Below are positions 1 through 64,000 of a stretch of 64,000 nt of DNA, piece after piece (within the stretch, counting starts at the first letter, position 1; each line of letters begins with the position of its first letter). The stretch is from assembly GCA_050250255.1 (NCBI GenBank), contig JBFWOZ010000012.1, forward strand, positions 11,620 to 75,619, read 5' to 3'. A program made the translations under genes and the position numbers. The notes below the pieces were generated by a model. The model ran no database searches. It saw only the letters and a list, made by a program, of their open reading frames with translations, and was not told where the DNA came from. Origin of the DNA: Bdellovibrionales bacterium (GTDB lineage Bacteria; Bdellovibrionota; Bdellovibrionia; Bdellovibrionales; DASUEL01).

Positions 1-2242
1 GACGAAGGGAAAAGAAACTGTACGTACACGTGGGAAAATGAAAAGTGCAGTCGAGGAAAGAATTGAAGTAAAGTGTAAGCCGGAAGAGGTTCCTAAAGAG
101 GGTGATTGGGAGCAAGTAGGTACATCTGATGATGGCGATCCTATTTGGATGTTGAAGACCAAAAAGAAATCAATCCACAAAGATAAAAAGGGCTCTTACG
201 TATTCAAAGGCAAGGCTCCACCTGTCATGGGAGAAAATGGCTGGCAGATTCCAGAGGGTGGAACTTTAGGTTTTACCGAAATGGCACCTGAAGCCTTATT
301 GTCGACGGCAAGTCCAGAGCACATGGAAGAAAGTGAAAACCGTCCATCGGTAGACTCGGTGGGTGAAGATAGGAAAGAAGGAAGCACTCGACGTACTCGT
401 AGCTCTGACGAAGAAGACGAACCTTCAATGGACGCATATTCCAGTAAAGATGAGGAAGAAGATGAGGGCGGATCTGCCAGGGCTCAGTCTACGGCGCTCC
501 CCAATGGTTTCTCGGAAGAAGAGAGCTCCGAATCAAAAGGCCCGGAAGAAGAGAGCGAAAAAAATCAACAGTTTTCGAAATCTGGTTCGGAAAAAAAACC
601 AAAGCTGAATATCCGAACCTCTGAAGAGGCTAATGAAGAAACTGATGAAGAAAAGAGCGCTCGACAGAGCTCTAAAGAATTATCTAAGAAGGAAAAAGAA
701 GAGCGCCAGCTCACCGTCAAAAAAGAAAAAGAAGAACGCGAAATAAAAAGAAAAGAAGCTGGGCTAAAACGTTTAGAGGAAAAGAAGGCCGCGCTCGATG
801 CACGCGCGAAAGAAAAAGCTGAGGCCGAGGCGTTAAAAAAGCAAGAGGTCGAAAAGACAAGGCAAGCTGAGGAAGAGCGCCAAGCACGAGTTGCAGAAAG
901 AGTTCTCGATAGAGAAAAGAAGAGAAGAGAAGAAGCTGAAGAAAAAGAGGGATCTGAAAAAAGTCGCACGCCTTCAAGCTCAGAAGAAAGCAAACAGAAA
1001 TCAACCTTTGCTACAGGCGTGGAGTCTTCTGAGGAAGACAACTCTAAAGGACATGCCGGAACAATATCCGAAACCAAAGAAAAATCGTCTTTCGAAAGTA
1101 ACCTAGAGGCACAAAAGAAAGAAAATGAAACCCCCTCTCGACAGCAAGCTTTGTCGGAAGAAGGGGGAGCAACTTTAGAGAAAGAGCGCCAAGGCGGATC
1201 TCTAGAGGCAGAAGAAAAAAAGAAGGAGATACTTAAAAGGACGATGCAAGAGAAGACTCGGGCACAACGCGAACAGCTTGAAAGGCTTGAGAAAGAAAAG
1301 CTTGAGCGCGAACAGGTTCAAGCAGCAAAGACACAGAGCGAAAGAGCGCAGGCAGAGGCCCAAGAAATCGAGGCAAAAAAGAAGCGAGATCTAACGGCCG
1401 CTCAAGAGATGGCACCAGCTACCGTCGAGGTTCAGGCACAGGGAGAGGCTATTCAGGCCACGGTTGATCCCAACCATGCGGACATGGTAGCAGAGCAAGG
1501 TAAGGCCAGTGACGGGATGCTTGTTAGGAATAAAACAAAACTTTTTGGCAAACGTGCAGATTCTGTTTTTGCTGAATGTGTTGTGAAAGCTCTTGAATCC
1601 ACCATCATCTCTGGAGTTGAGGGTGAAAAAGTCATTCCTCTTAAGTTGTCTCAGACCATAGATTGCATCCCCATCAACTCAACAAGATTTAAGGGCATAC
1701 TTATTTATTCATCAAGCGGTGAAACTCCGCTCGGCCCAGAATTTACTCGCTCAATGAAGAACTTTCTTTTAGAGCAGATGAATGCACGCGGCGAAGATTT
1801 AAAAGATGAGGGCGAACTCACACTTTCAATCGCGGCCTTTGAGTTTGTGCAAGTCGCCAGTGAATTTGCTGAATTTTTAACTGTGACATCTCATGCTGGT
1901 GCAGAAATTGGTATGGCCTTTATTCAGAGTGAAGGTGTTTTCCCAGCTTTAAAATCTAATGAAGAGGGGATGGTCTCTGTGGAAGTACAGAATGTGGACC
2001 CTGGCGAGCCAGTGGGATTTGATGCTTACATCCATCTACCCTTGAATAAAAAATACGTAAAGTACGTGAAAAAAGGTGGAACCCTAGAGGCCAAGCGCAA
2101 AGACAATTTAGCAGAGTTTTCTTATAAGCACTTTTACGTGAAAGACAATGAAGTAAAAGAGCTCAAGGGCCATTGTGCATCTGCTTTTGTGCAAAGAATG
2201 GTGAGACAATTCACAGGAATGGTTCAGCCAAAGGCGTCTTAG
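1..2242 (+). CDS. Large Glu/Lys-rich low-complexity/coiled-coil protein with a globular C-terminal domain (probably 5'-truncated by the window)
   Basis: The ORF 38..2242 frame is open back to the window start. A long E/K/S-rich linker is followed by a folded C-terminal region (…FDAYIHLPLNKKYVKYVKKGG…). Confidence 0.75.
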   Translation, partial: TKGKETVRTRGKMKSAVEERIEVKCKPEEVPKEGDWEQVGTSDDGDPIWMLKTKKKSIHKDKKGSYVFKGKAPPVMGENGWQIPEGGTLGFTEMAPEALLSTASPEHMEESENRPSVDSVGEDRKEGSTRRTRSSDEEDEPSMDAYSSKDEEEDEGGSARAQSTALPNGFSEEESSESKGPEEESEKNQQFSKSGSEKKPKLNIRTSEEANEETDEEKSARQSSKELSKKEKEERQLTVKKEKEEREIKRKEAGLKRLEEKKAALDARAKEKAEAEALKKQEVEKTRQAEEERQARVAERVLDREKKRREEAEEKEGSEKSRTPSSSEESKQKSTFATGVESSEEDNSKGHAGTISETKEKSSFESNLEAQKKENETPSRQQALSEEGGATLEKERQGGSLEAEEKKKEILKRTMQEKTRAQREQLERLEKEKLEREQVQAAKTQSERAQAEAQEIEAKKKRDLTAAQEMAPATVEVQAQGEAIQATVDPNHADMVAEQGKASDGMLVRNKTKLFGKRADSVFAECVVKALESTIISGVEGEKVIPLKLSQTIDCIPINSTRFKGILIYSSSGETPLGPEFTRSMKNFLLEQMNARGEDLKDEGELTLSIAAFEFVQVASEFAEFLTVTSHAGAEIGMAFIQSEGVFPALKSNEEGMVSVEVQNVDPGEPVGFDAYIHLPLNKKYVKYVKKGGTLEAKRKDNLAEFSYKHFYVKDNEVKELKGHCASAFVQRMVRQFTGMVQPKAS

Positions 2243-58284: not shown

Positions 58285-59067
58285 CTATTGCTCCAGTTTC
58301 AGCAGTTGCATTTTTGCTTTTTGGGCGAAGGAACTTTCGGGATAAAGGCTCACGATTTCGTTCATTCGTGCACGGGCCTTTTCTGTTTGTCCCATTCCCA
58401 AATAGGAAAGAGCATTGTAGTAATGTGCCTCGTCGAGATTCTGGCATAACTGTATGGCAGAGTCTAGAGCTGCAGCCGCTTGGTTATACTTCTTTTGAAA
58501 ATAGAGAGTTTGCCCATAGTAATTATGAGCCACGCAATAAGAACGGTTCAGACTCAAAGCTTCTTGAAAGCTTTTTTGTGCCTGAACATATTGGCGCGTT
58601 TTCATGTACGCGAGCCCCAGGTTCACGTGGGCACGCTCTGTCTGGGGATAAGTGATGTCATCCAAAACAATTTTAAGCTCACGAATCGCTTCATTGAATT
58701 GATTCATTTCAATATAAGCGCGCGCTAAATTGTTGCGCGCTTCTGTGTAATCATTTTTTAGCTGAAGTGCTTTTTGAAAATGCTCAATCGACTCTTTCAC
58801 GCGCTTACGAGCAAAGAGGGCAATTGCTAAATTGTTTTGAATGAGCGGATTTTCTGGATCGAGTTGTTCGGCAACGAGGAGTTCGCGAATCGCATCGGGA
58901 TATTGGCCTTTGCTGAGGTGGCCGGTACCAATCTGAAGATGAAGATCGGCCTTGTTTGCATTTTCCTGCGACGTTGCACAACCCGCAAAAATCCAAGAGA
59001 TGAAAATCAATGTTGAAAAGTATTTTGCCACTCTCTTATTTCTATCAAACCCCGCGAAATCAAACAA
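58285..59067 (-). CDS. pilF: Type IV pilus pilotin PilF/Tgl-like TPR lipoprotein
   Basis: Lipobox FAGC; TPRs (EARNNLA, YPQTERAHVNLG); ndk…rodZ synteny. Confidence 0.75.
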   Translation of the reverse strand: MFDFAGFDRNKRVAKYFSTLIFISWIFAGCATSQENANKADLHLQIGTGHLSKGQYPDAIRELLVAEQLDPENPLIQNNLAIALFARKRVKESIEHFQKALQLKNDYTEARNNLARAYIEMNQFNEAIRELKIVLDDITYPQTERAHVNLGLAYMKTRQYVQAQKSFQEALSLNRSYCVAHNYYGQTLYFQKKYNQAAAALDSAIQLCQNLDEAHYYNALSYLGMGQTEKARARMNEIVSLYPESSFAQKAKMQLLKLEQ

Positions 59068-59090
59068 CTTCCCGTCATCTGCGCTAGACC

Positions 59091-60218
59091 CTAACGCAAT
59101 ACGGCAATTAGCTCTACATGGTCTGTCTGAGGGAACATATCGAAGGCCTGTACAGAATGAAGAGAAAAGCGTGGCGCAAGAAGCTTCCAGTCGCGTGCGG
59201 CGGTCGCGGGATGACAGCTGATATAGATAAGTGCTTCAGCGGTTGAGTTTTTTAAGAGGGAAAGCAGCTCTCGGTCGCAGCCCATGCGAGGTGGGTCTAG
59301 GATAACAAGGCCTTCGCCTAAATTTTCTGTTCCTAAATACTTTTTCACGTCTGCGGTATGAAATTGCAAATTACGAAGTCGGAGTTGTGTAACCTTTTTC
59401 TTTGCTTCGATGAGCAGAGAAGCCTCTTTTTCAACGCCGAAGATGGTTTTATCAGGAAAGTTTTGGGCAAGAAAAAGTCCAAAATTCCCGGCTCCGCAGT
59501 AGAGATCATAAATTTTCTTAACAGACGTGTTTTGAATCTCCCTAAGGAGAGATTGTTGTAAGAGGTTGTTGATTTCTACGTTGATTTGTCGAAATGCGGG
59601 GGCTTGGTCACCTAACCAAATTGTGGAAACAGCTCCATCTTCTTCAAGTCGTAGTTCGAATTTTTCAATGTCCTTACTTTGCGAAGCTTCAATGAGCTCT
59701 TGGCGATGAGATTTTAAGTGATTGACGATTTTCTCGTCTGTGATGGCGCAATCATTGATGGGTACAATGTCATGACTTTTTCTCGTTAAGAAACCGAGTT
59801 TTCCTGAGCGTGCATGGAGCTGTATGCGATTGCGATAATTCCAAACTTTAGGGCTTCCAACAATGGGTTTGACGATGGCCTCTGGAGAAATAGAGCGTGC
59901 GAGTCTCTCGACGTGAAGTTGCTTTTGTCGCAATTGTTCTTCGTAAGAAACGTGCTGCCAAACACAGCCGCCACACTGGCCAAAGACGGGACAAGGAGGC
60001 GTGCGTCTCTCAGGACTCTCTTTGAGAACACGCACAACTTCTCCTCGAAGAAAGCTTTTTTTATTTTCGGTAATTTCAACTTCTGCGAGATCGCCCGCAC
60101 AAGAAAAAGGGACAAATACAACTTGTCCCTCATGTCGACCAACGCCATCACCACCGACGGCAAGGCCGGTGATGAGGAGTTCAATTTTTGCCCCAGGTCT
60201 GAGAGGCGAATTAAGCAT
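59091..60218 (-). CDS. rlmD: 23S rRNA m5U methyltransferase (RlmD/TrmA family)
   Basis: TRAM domain, [11 protein letters not shown]e-S motif, DLYCGAG, DPPR, YISCHP and [10 protein letters not shown] motifs. Confidence 0.85.
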
Positions 60219-60636
60219 TTACGATTTCGTGTGCTTCAAAGAACAAAGCGATTTCGCGTTTTGCGCTCACGGGAGAATCGCTTCCGTGAACAGCATTTTC
60301 ACCAACGTTGTCACCAAACTCAGCGCGGATTGTTCCAGGTTCTGCTTTTTTAGGATCCGTTGCGCCCATGATTTTACGATTTTTATCAACGGCACCTTCA
60401 CCAGAAAGAACCATTAAAAGAACGGGACCAGAAGTCATGAAAGAAACGAGTTCGCCAAAGAAAGGGCGCTCTTTGTGTTCCGCGTAGAACTCTTCACATT
60501 TTGATTTTGAAATACGAGTGAGTTTGGCGGCAGCTACTTTAAGGCCATTTTGTTCGAATTTTGCGATGATGGGACCCATCACATTTTTCTTAGTCGCGTT
60601 GGGTTTAATGATGCTGAATGTTTGTTCCTGAGCCAT
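60211..60636 (-). CDS. ndk: Nucleoside diphosphate kinase
   Basis: TFSIIKP, FYAEH, GTIR and NAVHGSDS motifs. Confidence 0.97.
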
Positions 60637-61206: not shown

Positions 61207-61695
61207 TTAGATATCGTCCCCAGCTTCACGATTGTAAGTGCAAACTGAGCGGACGATCGTCTCTTTACTTACACCATTGGTCACAACGTACACATACCAT
61301 TTTTGATCAATTTTAAGTTGGTCGTTTTCAATCGTCCAAGTGCCAGTCGCCATTTCGGTAAATGTATTTCCATTGGTTGAATTGAGAGCTAGGAGAGTGA
61401 ACTTTCGTTCAAGAGCAGTCTTGGTGGCGTTCCAAGCGTAATAATTATTTGTATGAACTTTGTCGTAGCTAGAAAGACTCATCTTGGTGTCGGTGATGGT
61501 TCCAATTGTCAGAGGGCCCGATCCATAATCGATTGAGGCGCATCCATTTTGAGTGAGCTTTAGTTTTCCGTTGCTAGTTGTTCCATTATCCTTCACGCAT
61601 TGGCCGGCCCAATTACCGGTTAAGTTCGCGCAAGCATCCGCATGAATGTTTTGTGCAAAAAATAAAACTACAAAGAAACTAATTGTTTTCATCAT
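61207..61695 (-). CDS. Secreted hypothetical protein (beta-rich, Cys pairs)
   Basis: Signal peptide ending IHA; ACANLTGNWAGQC; AAGGGG SD. Confidence 0.75.
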   Translation of the reverse strand: MMKTISFFVVLFFAQNIHADACANLTGNWAGQCVKDNGTTSNGKLKLTQNGCASIDYGSGPLTIGTITDTKMSLSSYDKVHTNNYYAWNATKTALERKFTLLALNSTNGNTFTEMATGTWTIENDQLKIDQKWYVYVVTNGVSKETIVRSVCTYNREAGDDI

Positions 61696-61803
61696 AACCC
61701 CTTCGAATAAGGGCCACGCTACGATTCTTTATGAAGCGGTACAAGAGAGAAATTTTTGGCACCAGTGATGATGCGAACTGCTGCGAATCGTGTACAAAAC
61801 ACC

Positions 61804-61835
61804 TGTGGCGATGATCTTGCCACACATTGTGGCAA
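61804..61835. promoter_or_regulatory. Operator-like element, copy 1
   Basis: TGTGGC-N8-TGCCAC-AC-ATTGTGGCA, containing the palindrome TTGCCAC-N5-GTGGCAA. Confidence 0.7.
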
Positions 61836-61911
61836 AGTTTCTGGAAAAGCAACTCACCACAGATTAGAACCTGCATCAGATTTAAAGCACAAAACAAATA
61901 AGGAGGCTGCA

Positions 61912-62613
61912 ATGAATCGATTTTTAATTTTTTTATTAACCATTAACACTCTTGGCGGAGTTGCATTTGCTAACACCGCACAAGAACCAACCCAGCTTGA
62001 GGTCAATATCATTGATCCACAAGTAACAGCAGGCTGGTGTAGAGATGTCGCTGCATTATTAAAACGTGCATTTGATATGGGCTCTCACGCAAAGACCTAT
62101 GCTGAGGAAAAAGTTATTTTATCTGACGGCATTAAAAATGCGCTTCAACAAAGTAACGAAAAGTACACGCCGTTTTTAAGATATACGCTCAAGGCGGCTC
62201 TGGATGATCTCGATATCTTTGAACAAGATCTACAGCGGCAAGTGAATCACTTACGCACAGGCATACGCAACGGACTCTCTGATCTCAGATATATAGAGGC
62301 TTATGTTAACAATAAAGCGGATCAAAGAATCTATGTGAGAGAAATTCTCTACAGAACGCTTCTCACGGGAGTTCAATTGCCATTCGATACACAAGAGCTT
62401 GTGGTGCTGACGCGCACGGCACAGCGATCAATCATATTGTTAAATATGAGTGATGGTCGTCGATATGAAAACGTTGTTTGTGCAAAAAGAGATTTGGAGT
62501 TGGCTCTTAAATCTGCAGATGCAACGACGGATATCAAAACCAAAAACGAGTACTTACGTGTGGGCATCAGAGCTGCCTATGACCGCTTATACCGAAATAG
62601 ATATTGCCATTAA
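61912..62613 (+). CDS. Secreted alpha-helical hypothetical protein
   Basis: AGGAGG SD before ATG 61912; signal peptide ending AFA. Confidence 0.78.
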   Translation: MNRFLIFLLTINTLGGVAFANTAQEPTQLEVNIIDPQVTAGWCRDVAALLKRAFDMGSHAKTYAEEKVILSDGIKNALQQSNEKYTPFLRYTLKAALDDLDIFEQDLQRQVNHLRTGIRNGLSDLRYIEAYVNNKADQRIYVREILYRTLLTGVQLPFDTQELVVLTRTAQRSIILLNMSDGRRYENVVCAKRDLELALKSADATTDIKTKNEYLRVGIRAAYDRLYRNRYCH

Positions 62614-62626
62614 TGTAAATAGTACA

Positions 62627-62659
62627 TGTGGCTGTGGGTCTGCCACGTATTGTGGCAGA
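62627..62659. promoter_or_regulatory. Operator-like element, copy 2
   Basis: TGTGGC-N8-TGCCAC-GT-ATTGTGGCA, containing the palindrome TCTGCCAC-N5-GTGGCAGA. Confidence 0.7.
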
Positions 62660-62730
62660 TTATATTGCGCACCGTTCTAACAAATGAGAAAACTTAAACG
62701 TAAATGAAATTATATAAACAGGAGTTATTT

Positions 62731-63270
62731 ATGAAAAAAATCTTTCAACTTATTCAGGTATTAATGTTCGCTACGATAACAAATGCACATGCCAATGAAC
62801 AAGGTGTGGTCGAAGGAACTGGTCGTATCAGTGTGAATCTCGACTATGTTGGTAAAAAAATGAAATGTGAAACGGATTGTGCAGGTTTTGTGTTTGGCAC
62901 ATTTGGTTTGGGTAGCGTGATTGTCCCTTTTAACAAAAAGAAGGTTCAAAAAAACGAAACACTCGATGTTCCCTCGCGAATTTTCGTTTCTCCGTGGGGC
63001 CAAGGTAAGGCCAAGGTGGGCATAACGCTCTCAAAACAAAAGAACTGTGGCGCAACACAAATGAGCTTTACCGGAGTGGAAATGGCGAGTGGTGCTTATG
63101 AACTCTATCCGAATGGCAGTGTTGAGCCTATCGGTGAATTGATCGTGCTAAATAACTCGATCATGACAAAGTTTAACAGGGCACTTAACGCTACAACAAC
63201 GGGTCTTGATGGGAACGCATGTCATTGGAAGGTGGCATCCGATACCTCTGTTGAGTTCACTAAAGAGTAA
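62731..63270 (+). CDS. Secreted hypothetical protein
   Basis: AGGAG SD before ATG 62731; signal peptide ending AHA. Confidence 0.75.
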   Translation: MKKIFQLIQVLMFATITNAHANEQGVVEGTGRISVNLDYVGKKMKCETDCAGFVFGTFGLGSVIVPFNKKKVQKNETLDVPSRIFVSPWGQGKAKVGITLSKQKNCGATQMSFTGVEMASGAYELYPNGSVEPIGELIVLNNSIMTKFNRALNATTTGLDGNACHWKVASDTSVEFTKE

Positions 63271-63273
63271 TCA

Positions 63274-64000
63274 ATGCAACCCACTGTAGAGAGACCTAAG
63301 ATTATGTCCCCCGTTGAGTTTCGTGTAAAATTACAGACGGAATTGACGAATCGTATTGCCAATAATCCCAGGTACTCTCTACGAGCTTTTGCAAGATTTT
63401 TAGAAATTGATCCTTCGACGCTTTCTCAGCTTCTTCGTGGCATGAGGAAGTTTTCAAATGAACAAATTGAAACGATAGGAACTAAAATTGGACTGAGTCC
63501 AAGAGATGTTAAAGCCTTAAAGAATCTCAACCAAAAAAAGGCTTCAGGGGAACAATCGTGGCGCAATGATAACTACGACCTGACCCATGACATGTTTCAA
63601 ATAATTGCGGATTGGTATCACTACGCTATCTTTGAATTAGTCACCATTAAAAATTTTAAAAACGATACAAAGTGGATTGCTTCGAAGCTAGGGATCTCCG
63701 CCTCTGAAGCTGAATTTGCCGTTGAAAGACTTTTGAGATTAGGACTCTTGGTCCGACAAGAGGATGGCGGTCTCGCAAAGGGCAGTCTTAATATCTCGAC
63801 AACGTCATCTCCCTTTACATCTGCGGCCTTTAGAAAAATGCAAGAGCAGCTTCTTCAGAAGGCTATTCAAGCTATGGAGACCGTACCGATGTCCCAAAGA
63901 GACCAATCGTCTATGACCATGGCTATAGATACTTCGCTCATGGATGCCGCTAAAGAAAAAATTAAAAACTTTAGACGCGAGTTATGTGATTTTTTTCAGA
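63274..64000 (+). CDS. TIGR02147/DUF4423 family HTH protein (3'-truncated)
   Basis: Manual translation gives NPRYSLRAFARFLEIDPSTLSQLLRG (HTH), IIADWYHYAIFELV, RLLRLGL and RDQSSMTMAID…AKEKIKNFRREL. Not in the ORF track because it runs off the window end. Confidence 0.88.
   Translation, partial: MQPTVERPKIMSPVEFRVKLQTELTNRIANNPRYSLRAFARFLEIDPSTLSQLLRGMRKFSNEQIETIGTKIGLSPRDVKALKNLNQKKASGEQSWRNDNYDLTHDMFQIIADWYHYAIFELVTIKNFKNDTKWIASKLGISASEAEFAVERLLRLGLLVRQEDGGLAKGSLNISTTSSPFTSAAFRKMQEQLLQKAIQAMETVPMSQRDQSSMTMAIDTSLMDAAKEKIKNFRRELCDFFQ

Follow-up and report, generated by a model that had tools for sequence, protein, structure and literature searches.

A three-half-site element as the probable operator of a TIGR02147-family regulator in a Bdellovibrionales genome

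Near the end of a 64,000-nucleotide stretch of a Bdellovibrionales genome (G000:C12:11620-75619, C12 being its contig; the whole stretch is called the window below) the same 31-base-pair (bp) element occurs twice, each time in front of a gene for a protein with a signal-peptide-like N-terminus. The second of these genes is followed by a regulator gene of the TIGR02147 ('Fsuc_second')/DUF4423 (PF14394) group, which consists of uncharacterised helix-turn-helix (HTH) proteins. A sequence-only reading of this DNA had proposed that the element is the binding site of that regulator and that the locus is an autoregulated cassette. We asked what the element does and which protein reads it. In the literature library that we searched, we found no published description of a DNA site, target or function for TIGR02147/DUF4423. 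We consider it highly probable that the two elements are the operator bound by the regulator encoded from position 63274. This judgement concerns the relation of site to regulator.

The window contains TGTGGC-N8-TGCCAC-NN-ATTGTGGCA at 61804-61834 and at 62627-62657, as the sequence-only reading had stated; copy 1 ends 77 nucleotides (nt) before the ATG at 61912 and copy 2 ends 73 nt before the ATG at 62731. The element reads better as three half-sites, GTGGCg/t-N7-TGCCAC-N5-GTGGCA: a first half-site H1 (GTGGCG or GTGGCT), 7 bp, a middle half-site M (TGCCAC), a spacer (ACATT or GTATT) and a third half-site H3 (GTGGCA). Allowing at most one mismatch, the palindrome TGCCAC-N5-GTGGCA has two matches in the window where 0.08 are expected, and none of 100 shuffles reached two, which excludes chance for the pair. 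Between the copies 23 of the 31 element positions are identical, compared with only 50 of 115 alignment columns in the flanks; this indicates conservation of the motif rather than a recent duplication of the whole region. We also carried out the proposed scan of the genome: over 3,094,052 bp neither the exact palindrome nor the full 31-bp pattern has a copy beyond these two, and when one mismatch is allowed six more palindrome matches appear, none with a third half-site. One of the six, at C64:3941, on the contig taken as the next one, sits within sucC and was discarded as a chance match. The sequence-only reading had named a motif scattered over the genome without link to TIGR02147 genes as grounds for abandoning its proposal; we looked for such scatter in the 3.09-Mb genome and did not see it. 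Of the regulon that it had also proposed, the two local sites stand, and the regulon is a small one limited to them.

Does the family as a whole carry such sites? PF14394 has 25 matches above the cut-off in the genome; since C64:4-198 belongs to the end of the window gene, they correspond to 24 family genes, in keeping with the NCBIfam type 'paralog'. Upstream of most of the other paralogues, for which we read 300 nt each, we found a common layout about 60 nt before their own ATG: a half-site H and, after a gap, its reverse complement, then a spacer of 5 bp (usually ACTTT) and a repeat of H; the sequence of H differs from one paralogue to the next. Examples are GGGGCA..TGCCCCactttGGGGCA, GTTACA..TGTAACactttGTTACA, GTGTCA..TGACACatgttGTGTCA and GTACCA..TGGTACactttGTACCA. 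The paralogue-specific palindromes that had been suspected near TIGR02147 genes are thus present before most of them, and the window element matches the layout exactly. Adding 29 and 40 family loci from 30 same-order relatives to those of this genome, we collected 85 upstream regions, of which 46 contain a perfect 6-N5-6 inverted repeat, as compared with 4.0 in shuffles. With the layout called at a three-half-site score of at least 11 of 12, 52 of these 85 loci qualify (0.85 in shuffles), together with 15 of 57 usable phylum-wide loci (0.5 in shuffles) and 30 of 79 named Bdellovibrionota records (0.9 in shuffles). The named records, gathered with a 9-row alignment query that matched at least 578 relatives, come from Bdellovibrionales, Bacteriovoracaceae, Pseudobdellovibrionaceae and Bdellovibrio strains; four loci of the first set (L020, L022, L023 and L024) and nine phylum-wide loci went unscored as they gave no N-terminal tblastn match.

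Several parts of the layout are constant or directional. The spacer ACTTT always points toward the gene, family members differ in the gap between H1 and M (4-9 bp), and the base before H1 is a pyrimidine (T in 35 and C in 13 of 48 loci), often within TTACCT, with an A-rich stretch 5-20 nt upstream of H1. A fourth half-site upstream of H1 is not present in the family loci (1.31 matches compared with 1.38 in a permuted control). The winged-helix domain of the regulator, described below, is a candidate reader of these constant asymmetric parts around the half-sites. When we scanned the genome with the palindrome of each paralogue, nearly all proved private to their own gene. The exception is a GTGTCA-type element, GTGTCAgccttttCGACACacattGTGTCA, which is of the type of the C8:35777 paralogue and lies at G000:C45:1791-1820 in minus-strand orientation, 116 nt upstream of an open reading frame (ORF) for a 104-amino-acid (aa) signal-peptide protein (ATG at C45:1683, minus strand) and ∼105 nt away from the GTTACA operator that belongs to the C45 paralogue. 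It may be a target in trans or reflect cross-talk between paralogues, and it means that operators before extra secreted genes, like copy 1, occur elsewhere. Two further observations concern other contigs. The ends G000:C34:116 and G000:C46:22520 overlap, and a single base distinguishes them within the C46 paralogue's operator (GGAAACaaagtGTTTCC, perfect, on C34; GGAAACaaagtTTTTCC on C46), which suggests strain-level operator variation in the sample. An identical stretch, GGACGGagtccGCGTCC, stands with the same flanks at G000:C20:39087 and G000:C57:8801 and is a repeated element unrelated to the operator.

The sequence-only reading had further suggested that the palindromes should co-vary with recognition-helix residues. 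We computed mutual information between the bases of the consensus half-site and the columns of the protein alignment for 49 regulator/site pairs; L012, L054, L070 and L038 had been dropped beforehand, the picker having taken a different repeat, as had L048, whose helix columns are absent in the alignment, and L030 was kept despite its near-duplicate L028. Eight of the ten strongest column-base pairs fall between residues 46 and 58 of the window regulator (46-52 and 57-58), that is, at the start of the second HTH helix and in the loop that follows. The top pair joins residue 47 to base 2 of the half-site (z 17.5, 1.53 bits). Where base 2 is T, residue 47 is P in 23 cases and A in 5; C goes with S (9) and D (1), G with H in all six cases, and A with Q (3) and A (1). 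This gives a series of helices xSTLSQ, with P, S, H or Q at x, facing half-sites G[T/C/G/A]GGCA. The signal is local to the helix instead of running through the whole protein; covariation was thus found, with its peak where a recognition helix would place it.

Relatedness among the pairs was controlled for with a tree of 78 pairs made without the helix columns, on which base 2 changes at least 19 times. For T with P or A, 5.8 of 6 independent, well-supported pairs change the same way and none the opposite way (median p 0.031); for C with S the figures are 4.6 of 5 and none (p 0.0625). G with H is represented by three pairs, all in the same direction, and A with Q by three pairs, of which 1.5 go in the same direction and 1.5 have no difference at residue 47; both sets are too small for the test. 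Applied to the 30 held-out named records with the layout, the residue-47 rule was right for 26 and wrong for none, with 4 for which no rule exists.

A more direct prediction concerns the helix of the window regulator itself, DPSTLSQ, a member of the type D[PA]S[ST]xSQ. Among the 79 named records, all 9 regulators with this helix type have TGCCAC-N5-GTGGCA (at most one mismatch) within 200 nt upstream, compared with 1 of the 70 with other helices (Fisher 4.9e-11, a value for relatives that are not independent). The single exception is a DSSTLSQ helix with TGCCGC..GTGGCA, the neighbour that the residue-47 rule predicts. Together with the covariation this supports the earlier claim that the motif is the DNA site of this paralogue, physical binding being what we infer from it. 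The binder could instead be some other paralogue or a regulator from outside the family, with the adjacency being incidental; the number of paralogues in the genome and the GTGTCA-type site of the C8 paralogue beside the C45 paralogue leave some room for this. However, DPSTLSQ occurs only in the window regulator among the 23 paralogues of the genome with a visible helix, and in other genomes the helix type comes with the palindrome in 9 of 9 loci. We therefore regard a foreign binder as very unlikely.

We then examined where the operator stands relative to the promoter. In 48 loci aligned on the palindrome centre, TTG is found at +16 to +18 and TAta at +39 to +42, 17 nt after the −35-like hexamer, in the form TAtaxT and often with a TG extension. 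An ATG follows at +51 to +53 in 27 of 45 loci, 7 nt after the −10-like hexamer. The last half-site ends 7 bp before the −35-like hexamer without overlapping the core elements. From this pattern, leaderless transcripts are probable for the canonical family members, with a promoter of sigma-70 type and the ATG ∼52 bp downstream of the palindrome centre. Eight of ten GTGGCA-type loci in other genomes have the same geometry, each with a single site. The window locus departs from this pattern as a derived form: two sites are present, the genes that they precede carry a Shine-Dalgarno sequence and begin 82-86 nt further on, the target genes have a leader, and the regulator is second in its operon.

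Two other readings need no repressor or activator of this family. In the first, the inverted repeats would act as RNA, either as alternative hairpins in a leader (H1 with M or M with H3) or, for copy 2, as a terminator after geneA, the first of the two secreted-protein genes. M can indeed pair with either neighbour, and copy 2, which begins 14 nt past the geneA stop, gives a moderately stable hairpin (−16.9 kcal/mol, z −2.28). Nonetheless shuffled sequences do as well as the copy 1 hairpin (z −0.76), no terminator-like T tract was found, and a consensus scan of 61650-63320 returned no terminator. Mismatches in imperfect sites are C-T, A-G and G-A instead of G-U pairs, and the covariation with a protein helix has no RNA explanation. 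The canonical element lies upstream of the −35/−10-like hexamers and of a probable leaderless start and would thus be outside the transcript, which favours a DNA site over an RNA structure; an RNA role is the least probable of the readings considered here.

In the second, the elements would be sigma-54 promoters and the palindrome incidental. Taken together, H1 and M read TGGC-N7-TTGC (copy 1) or TGGC-N7-CTGC (copy 2), so that TGGCgatgatcTTGC and TGGCtgtgggtCTGC both place GG and GC 10 nt apart, the right spacing for −24/−12 elements, and the genome encodes rpoN (sigma-54). Against this, the elements of other paralogues keep the layout without GG and GC (GTACCA, GTTACA, GTTTAC) and with gaps of 4-9 bp, so the GG and GC seen here follow from the half-site of this paralogue and its 7-bp gap. 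TGGC-N7-[TC]TGC occurs 215 times in the genome, conservation of the third half-site and the link to the helix are left unexplained, and no gene or site for an enhancer-binding protein was seen, a full search for one not having been made. We judge sigma-54 promoters to be highly improbable, if marginally less so than an RNA structure.

If the regulator binds here, in which direction does it act? We lean, by a little, towards activation: the site abuts the promoter core at a fixed distance without overlapping it, which fits activation better than steric repression. The same protein on the same site could also be a classical autorepressor that holds the cassette off until a signal. The canonical family promoters look reasonably strong by themselves, with their TTG, 17-nt spacing, TAtaxT and frequent TG extension, and the nearest solved relatives of the HTH are HigA antitoxins, which repress their own promoters through palindromes. 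Yet a site that ends 7 bp upstream of the −35 hexamer and touches neither core element would be unusual for steric repression; its centre stands at a fixed ∼52 bp, five helical turns, from the start; and the promoter slots in the window are weak, as expected for activator-dependent promoters. Repression is accordingly a possibility that we hold as doubtful, and a dose-dependent combination of both signs seems to us rather unlikely.

The regulator itself was confirmed as a family member: the 242-aa part that lies in the window scores 129.4 bits against PF14394 (cut-off 30) and 98.8 bits against TIGR02147 (cut-off 50), and its ATG follows the stop of geneB, the second secreted-protein gene, at 63270 after 3 nt, as the sequence-only reading had said. 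TIGR02147/DUF4423 proteins were found in 46 of 61 sampled genomes of the phylum, and the one paper that our full-text searches found to mention DUF4423 does so in a table, where Bd3700 is entered under it, up-regulated during growth in prey. Close orthologues of the window regulator were not found in 30 relatives, where the best matches have 44-48% identity, and a single-protein scan of genome contigs returned none. An AlphaFold2 model of the regulator (predicted local distance difference test, pLDDT, 89.2) places residues 47-54 in the second HTH helix and predicts three parts: an N-terminal HTH, an ArsR/MarR-like winged helix and C-terminal helices. The N-terminal domain is HigA-like (2icp, profile E 3.7e-7, with 'YSLRaFA...pstLS..L.gk' aligned; 2ict, 30% identity; Z 7.5, root-mean-square deviation (rmsd) 3.8 over 81 residues), and the middle domain (residues ∼96-182) has an ArsR/MarR-type winged-helix fold (CzrA 1r1u, Z 9.0, rmsd 4.4 over 84 residues; profile E 7e-4). 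Structural searches with the model gave no whole-chain match (best Foldseek E 0.03; domain matches only in VIA-align). A homodimer prediction returned a score of 0.00 and a mark of 0.42 and counts neither for nor against dimerisation.

In its proposed mechanism the regulator most resembles the C proteins of type II restriction-modification systems (C.PvuII, C.AhdI, C.Esp1396I). Both have an Xre-type HTH; C proteins bind palindromic boxes directly upstream of their own gene and are co-transcribed with a downstream 'cargo' gene, and the TIGR02147 regulators would do the same. C.AhdI (1y7y) matches the N-terminal domain of the regulator with an rmsd of 2.9 over 67 residues (Foldseek E 0.12), and C proteins are a model for dose-dependent activation followed by repression. 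In the account of C.PvuII in PMC2175313, the mRNA from the C-activated promoter is leaderless, and the C-boxes consist of four half-sites in two adjacent palindromes that overlap the −35 hexamer. Other features differ. The regulator's site has three half-sites and ends 7 bp upstream of a −35-like TTG; a C protein is a small single-domain protein, whereas the regulator has ∼266 aa in three parts; and its neighbours are signal-peptide ORFs without a family, not a restriction endonuclease or methyltransferase. The leaderless trait is suggested by the ATG position in the 27 of 45 family loci given above, while the window regulator is second in a leadered operon.

HigA proteins of Escherichia coli (2icp/2ict) and Proteus vulgaris (4mcx/6chv) are the nearest solved relatives of the HTH, which is likewise of the HigA-type HTH_3 kind. 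HigA proteins bind inverted repeats in their own promoter, and the title of entry 9chl names 'operator 2 DNA'. Unlike HigA, the regulator has the extra winged-helix domain and C-terminal helices, its site lies upstream of the promoter core and not over it, and the adjoining ORFs (62731-63270 and C64:218-1348) are signal-peptide-like without a family match, in place of a HigB/RelE-type toxin. To the ArsR/SmtB and MarR regulators (CzrA, CadC, AdcR) the middle domain is alike in fold only, with middling Z, and the operator covariation maps to the N-terminal HTH and not to this domain.

From these elements a mechanism can be proposed. The regulator would read the operator through the recognition helix D46-Q52 of its N-terminal HigA-like HTH. 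One dimer would occupy the M/H3 palindrome TGCCAC-N5-GTGGCA, in which 11 bp separate the centres of the half-sites, and H1, 13 bp upstream, would take up another subunit or dimer. If the locus follows the family geometry, transcription would start ∼52 bp downstream of the palindrome centre, and H3 would end 7 bp before the −35 hexamer. The regulator would thereby control two promoters, one for geneA and the other for geneB, the regulator itself and a secreted protein with a HEAGH motif encoded on the next contig, and the outcome would be an autoregulated and insulated cassette. Dimerisation or sensing could fall to the ArsR/MarR-like middle domain and to the C-terminal helices.

A number of points weigh against this interpretation. 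Every functional step at the window locus is one that we infer. Both promoter slots in the window are weak (TGGAAA/TAGAAC and TTGCGC/GAAAAC), and a consensus scan of 61650-63320 found no sigma-70 consensus promoter on the plus strand. Whereas canonical family genes are probably leaderless, here the regulator comes second in an operon with a leader, and its 3′ end depends on joining C12 to C64 through a common 139 nt. Both copies also fit GG-N10-GC in a genome with rpoN. The layout is not universal: 33 of 85, 42 of 57 and 49 of 79 loci score below 11. On the 78-row tree only one of the four residue-base rules reaches p < 0.05, and a first tree of 48 rows was underpowered, with 3, 3, 1 and 2 pairs and p from 0.25 to 1. 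Among the 15 phylum-wide loci with the layout the residue-47 rule was right for 9 and wrong for 3, with 3 lacking a rule; the three wrong sites have atypical spacers and two of them also atypical positions, features noticed only after the outcome. Since both held-out sets consist mostly of T with P or A, a constant guess of T would also score well, and both sets test the minor base-2 classes only weakly.

The association with secreted proteins, which the sequence-only reading had proposed for this locus, holds across the family. At 17 of 23 complete paralogue loci a signal-peptide-like ORF begins within a few nt after the regulator stop (judged by a crude hydrophobicity test), and the window regulator is likewise followed by the signal-peptide ORF C64:218-1348. 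Many of these partner ORFs share G(N/G)GG(D) downstream of the signal peptide and, ∼120 aa later, 'LxxHExxY/H'; HExxH is present in three of them (C70, C14 and C64, among the 17 loci L096-L112), and eight are weakly alike by blastp. None of 18 partner ORFs belongs to a Pfam or NCBIfam family, and they may form an undescribed zincin-like secreted family. For the product of C64:218-1348 a zincin-like function is only a lead: ESM Atlas searches with it and with the geneB product returned nothing at 0.9 and weak metallopeptidase-like structural rows below that bar, and its AlphaFold2 model is unusable (pLDDT 45.5).

The features of the locus are collected in Table 1. No similarity between geneA and geneB was detected by blastp, in agreement with the earlier description of two unrelated secreted proteins; their secretion is indicated by signal-peptide-like N-termini only. 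Residues 42-204 of the geneA product resemble residues 185-344 of the C64:218-1348 product (23% identity, E 5e-8), so that both operator copies would drive members of one small local protein family. The divergent secreted gene that had been reported to have copy 1 upstream of it adjoins the element on its H1 side, opposite to the side of the family promoters, and is therefore only a possible further target.

Table 1. Positions in the window of the proposed operator copies, the putative promoters and the neighbouring genes
Feature	Position	Strand	Description
Proposed operator, copy 1	61804..61834	+	H1 GTGGCG 61805-61810, 7-bp gap, M TGCCAC 61818-61823, spacer ACATT 61824-61828 (centre 61826), H3 GTGGCA 61829-61834; 'cacct' just before
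Proposed operator, copy 2	62627..62657	+	H1 GTGGCT 62628-62633, 7-bp gap, M TGCCAC 62641-62646, spacer GTATT 62647-62651 (centre 62649), H3 GTGGCA 62652-62657
Putative core promoter, copy 1	61842..61870	+	Placed by family geometry; −35 slot TGGAAA 61842-61847, −10 slot TAGAAC 61865-61870; predicted start near 61878, 34-nt leader, Shine-Dalgarno AAGGAGG
Putative core promoter, copy 2	62665..62693	+	Placed by family geometry; −35 slot TTGCGC 62665-62670, −10 slot GAAAAC 62688-62693 (poor); predicted start near 62701
geneA	61912..62613	+	233 aa, signal-peptide-like N-terminus, no Pfam or NCBIfam family
geneB	62731..63270	+	179 aa, signal-peptide-like N-terminus, no family; first gene of the regulator-bearing operon
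TIGR02147/DUF4423 regulator	63274..64000	+	Cut at the contig/window end after 242 aa; ∼266 aa overall, predicted end at C64:213
Recognition helix D46-P-S-T-L-S-Q52	∼63409-63429	+	Regulator codons
Divergent ORF	61207-61695	−	162 aa, signal-peptide-like N-terminus, no family; start 108 nt from copy 1

The end of C12 and the start of C64 overlap by ∼139 identical nt; the first ∼17 nt of C64 are unlike C12, with one amino-acid difference, which could be an assembly artefact or a strain variant. On C64 the predicted end of the regulator gene (213) is followed after 4 nt by the 377-aa signal-peptide ORF (218-1348, HEAGH at residue 132), a convergent signal-peptide ORF (1427-1861, minus strand) and then sucD, sucC and mdh. 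On the other side of the locus, housekeeping genes occupy 58285-60636, all on the minus strand and identified from their translations only: a nucleoside diphosphate kinase-like ORF (60211-60636), a 375-aa ORF (59091-60218), which we take to be RNA methyltransferase-like, and an ORF for a lipoprotein resembling tetratricopeptide-repeat proteins (58285-59067). The window DNA was matched by three DNA runs, all from one study and labelled landfill metagenome; no RNA run was listed.

What could such sites mean for the phylum? In the broadest picture, which we offer as a speculation and hold in its full extent to be unlikely, a Bdellovibrionota genome would contain two dozen mutually insulated gene switches. 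Each would be a TIGR02147 regulator with its private three-half-site operator, its specificity changed through one helix residue or a few (position 47 being P/A, S, H or Q for T, C, G or A at base 2), and each would drive its own, often leaderless, gene together with a private secreted protein that is zincin-like or an orphan. The common M would let the protein toggle between H1/M and M/H3, so that each unit would autonomously turn one component of the secreted arsenal on or off. As a kind, an autoregulated HTH factor with a palindromic operator is already known; we did not find the DNA site of this family described. TIGR02147/DUF4423 gains a testable model, comprising an operator layout, a position relative to the promoter and a residue-to-base rule that predicts the site of a given paralogue, and the family is tied to secreted-protein genes of predatory bacteria, whose regulation is poorly known. 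If the picture is true, the regulators and their operators would amount to a natural library of orthogonal pairs, and such diversified pairs without cross-reaction would help to study the evolution of specificity among duplicated genes and to build engineered circuits.

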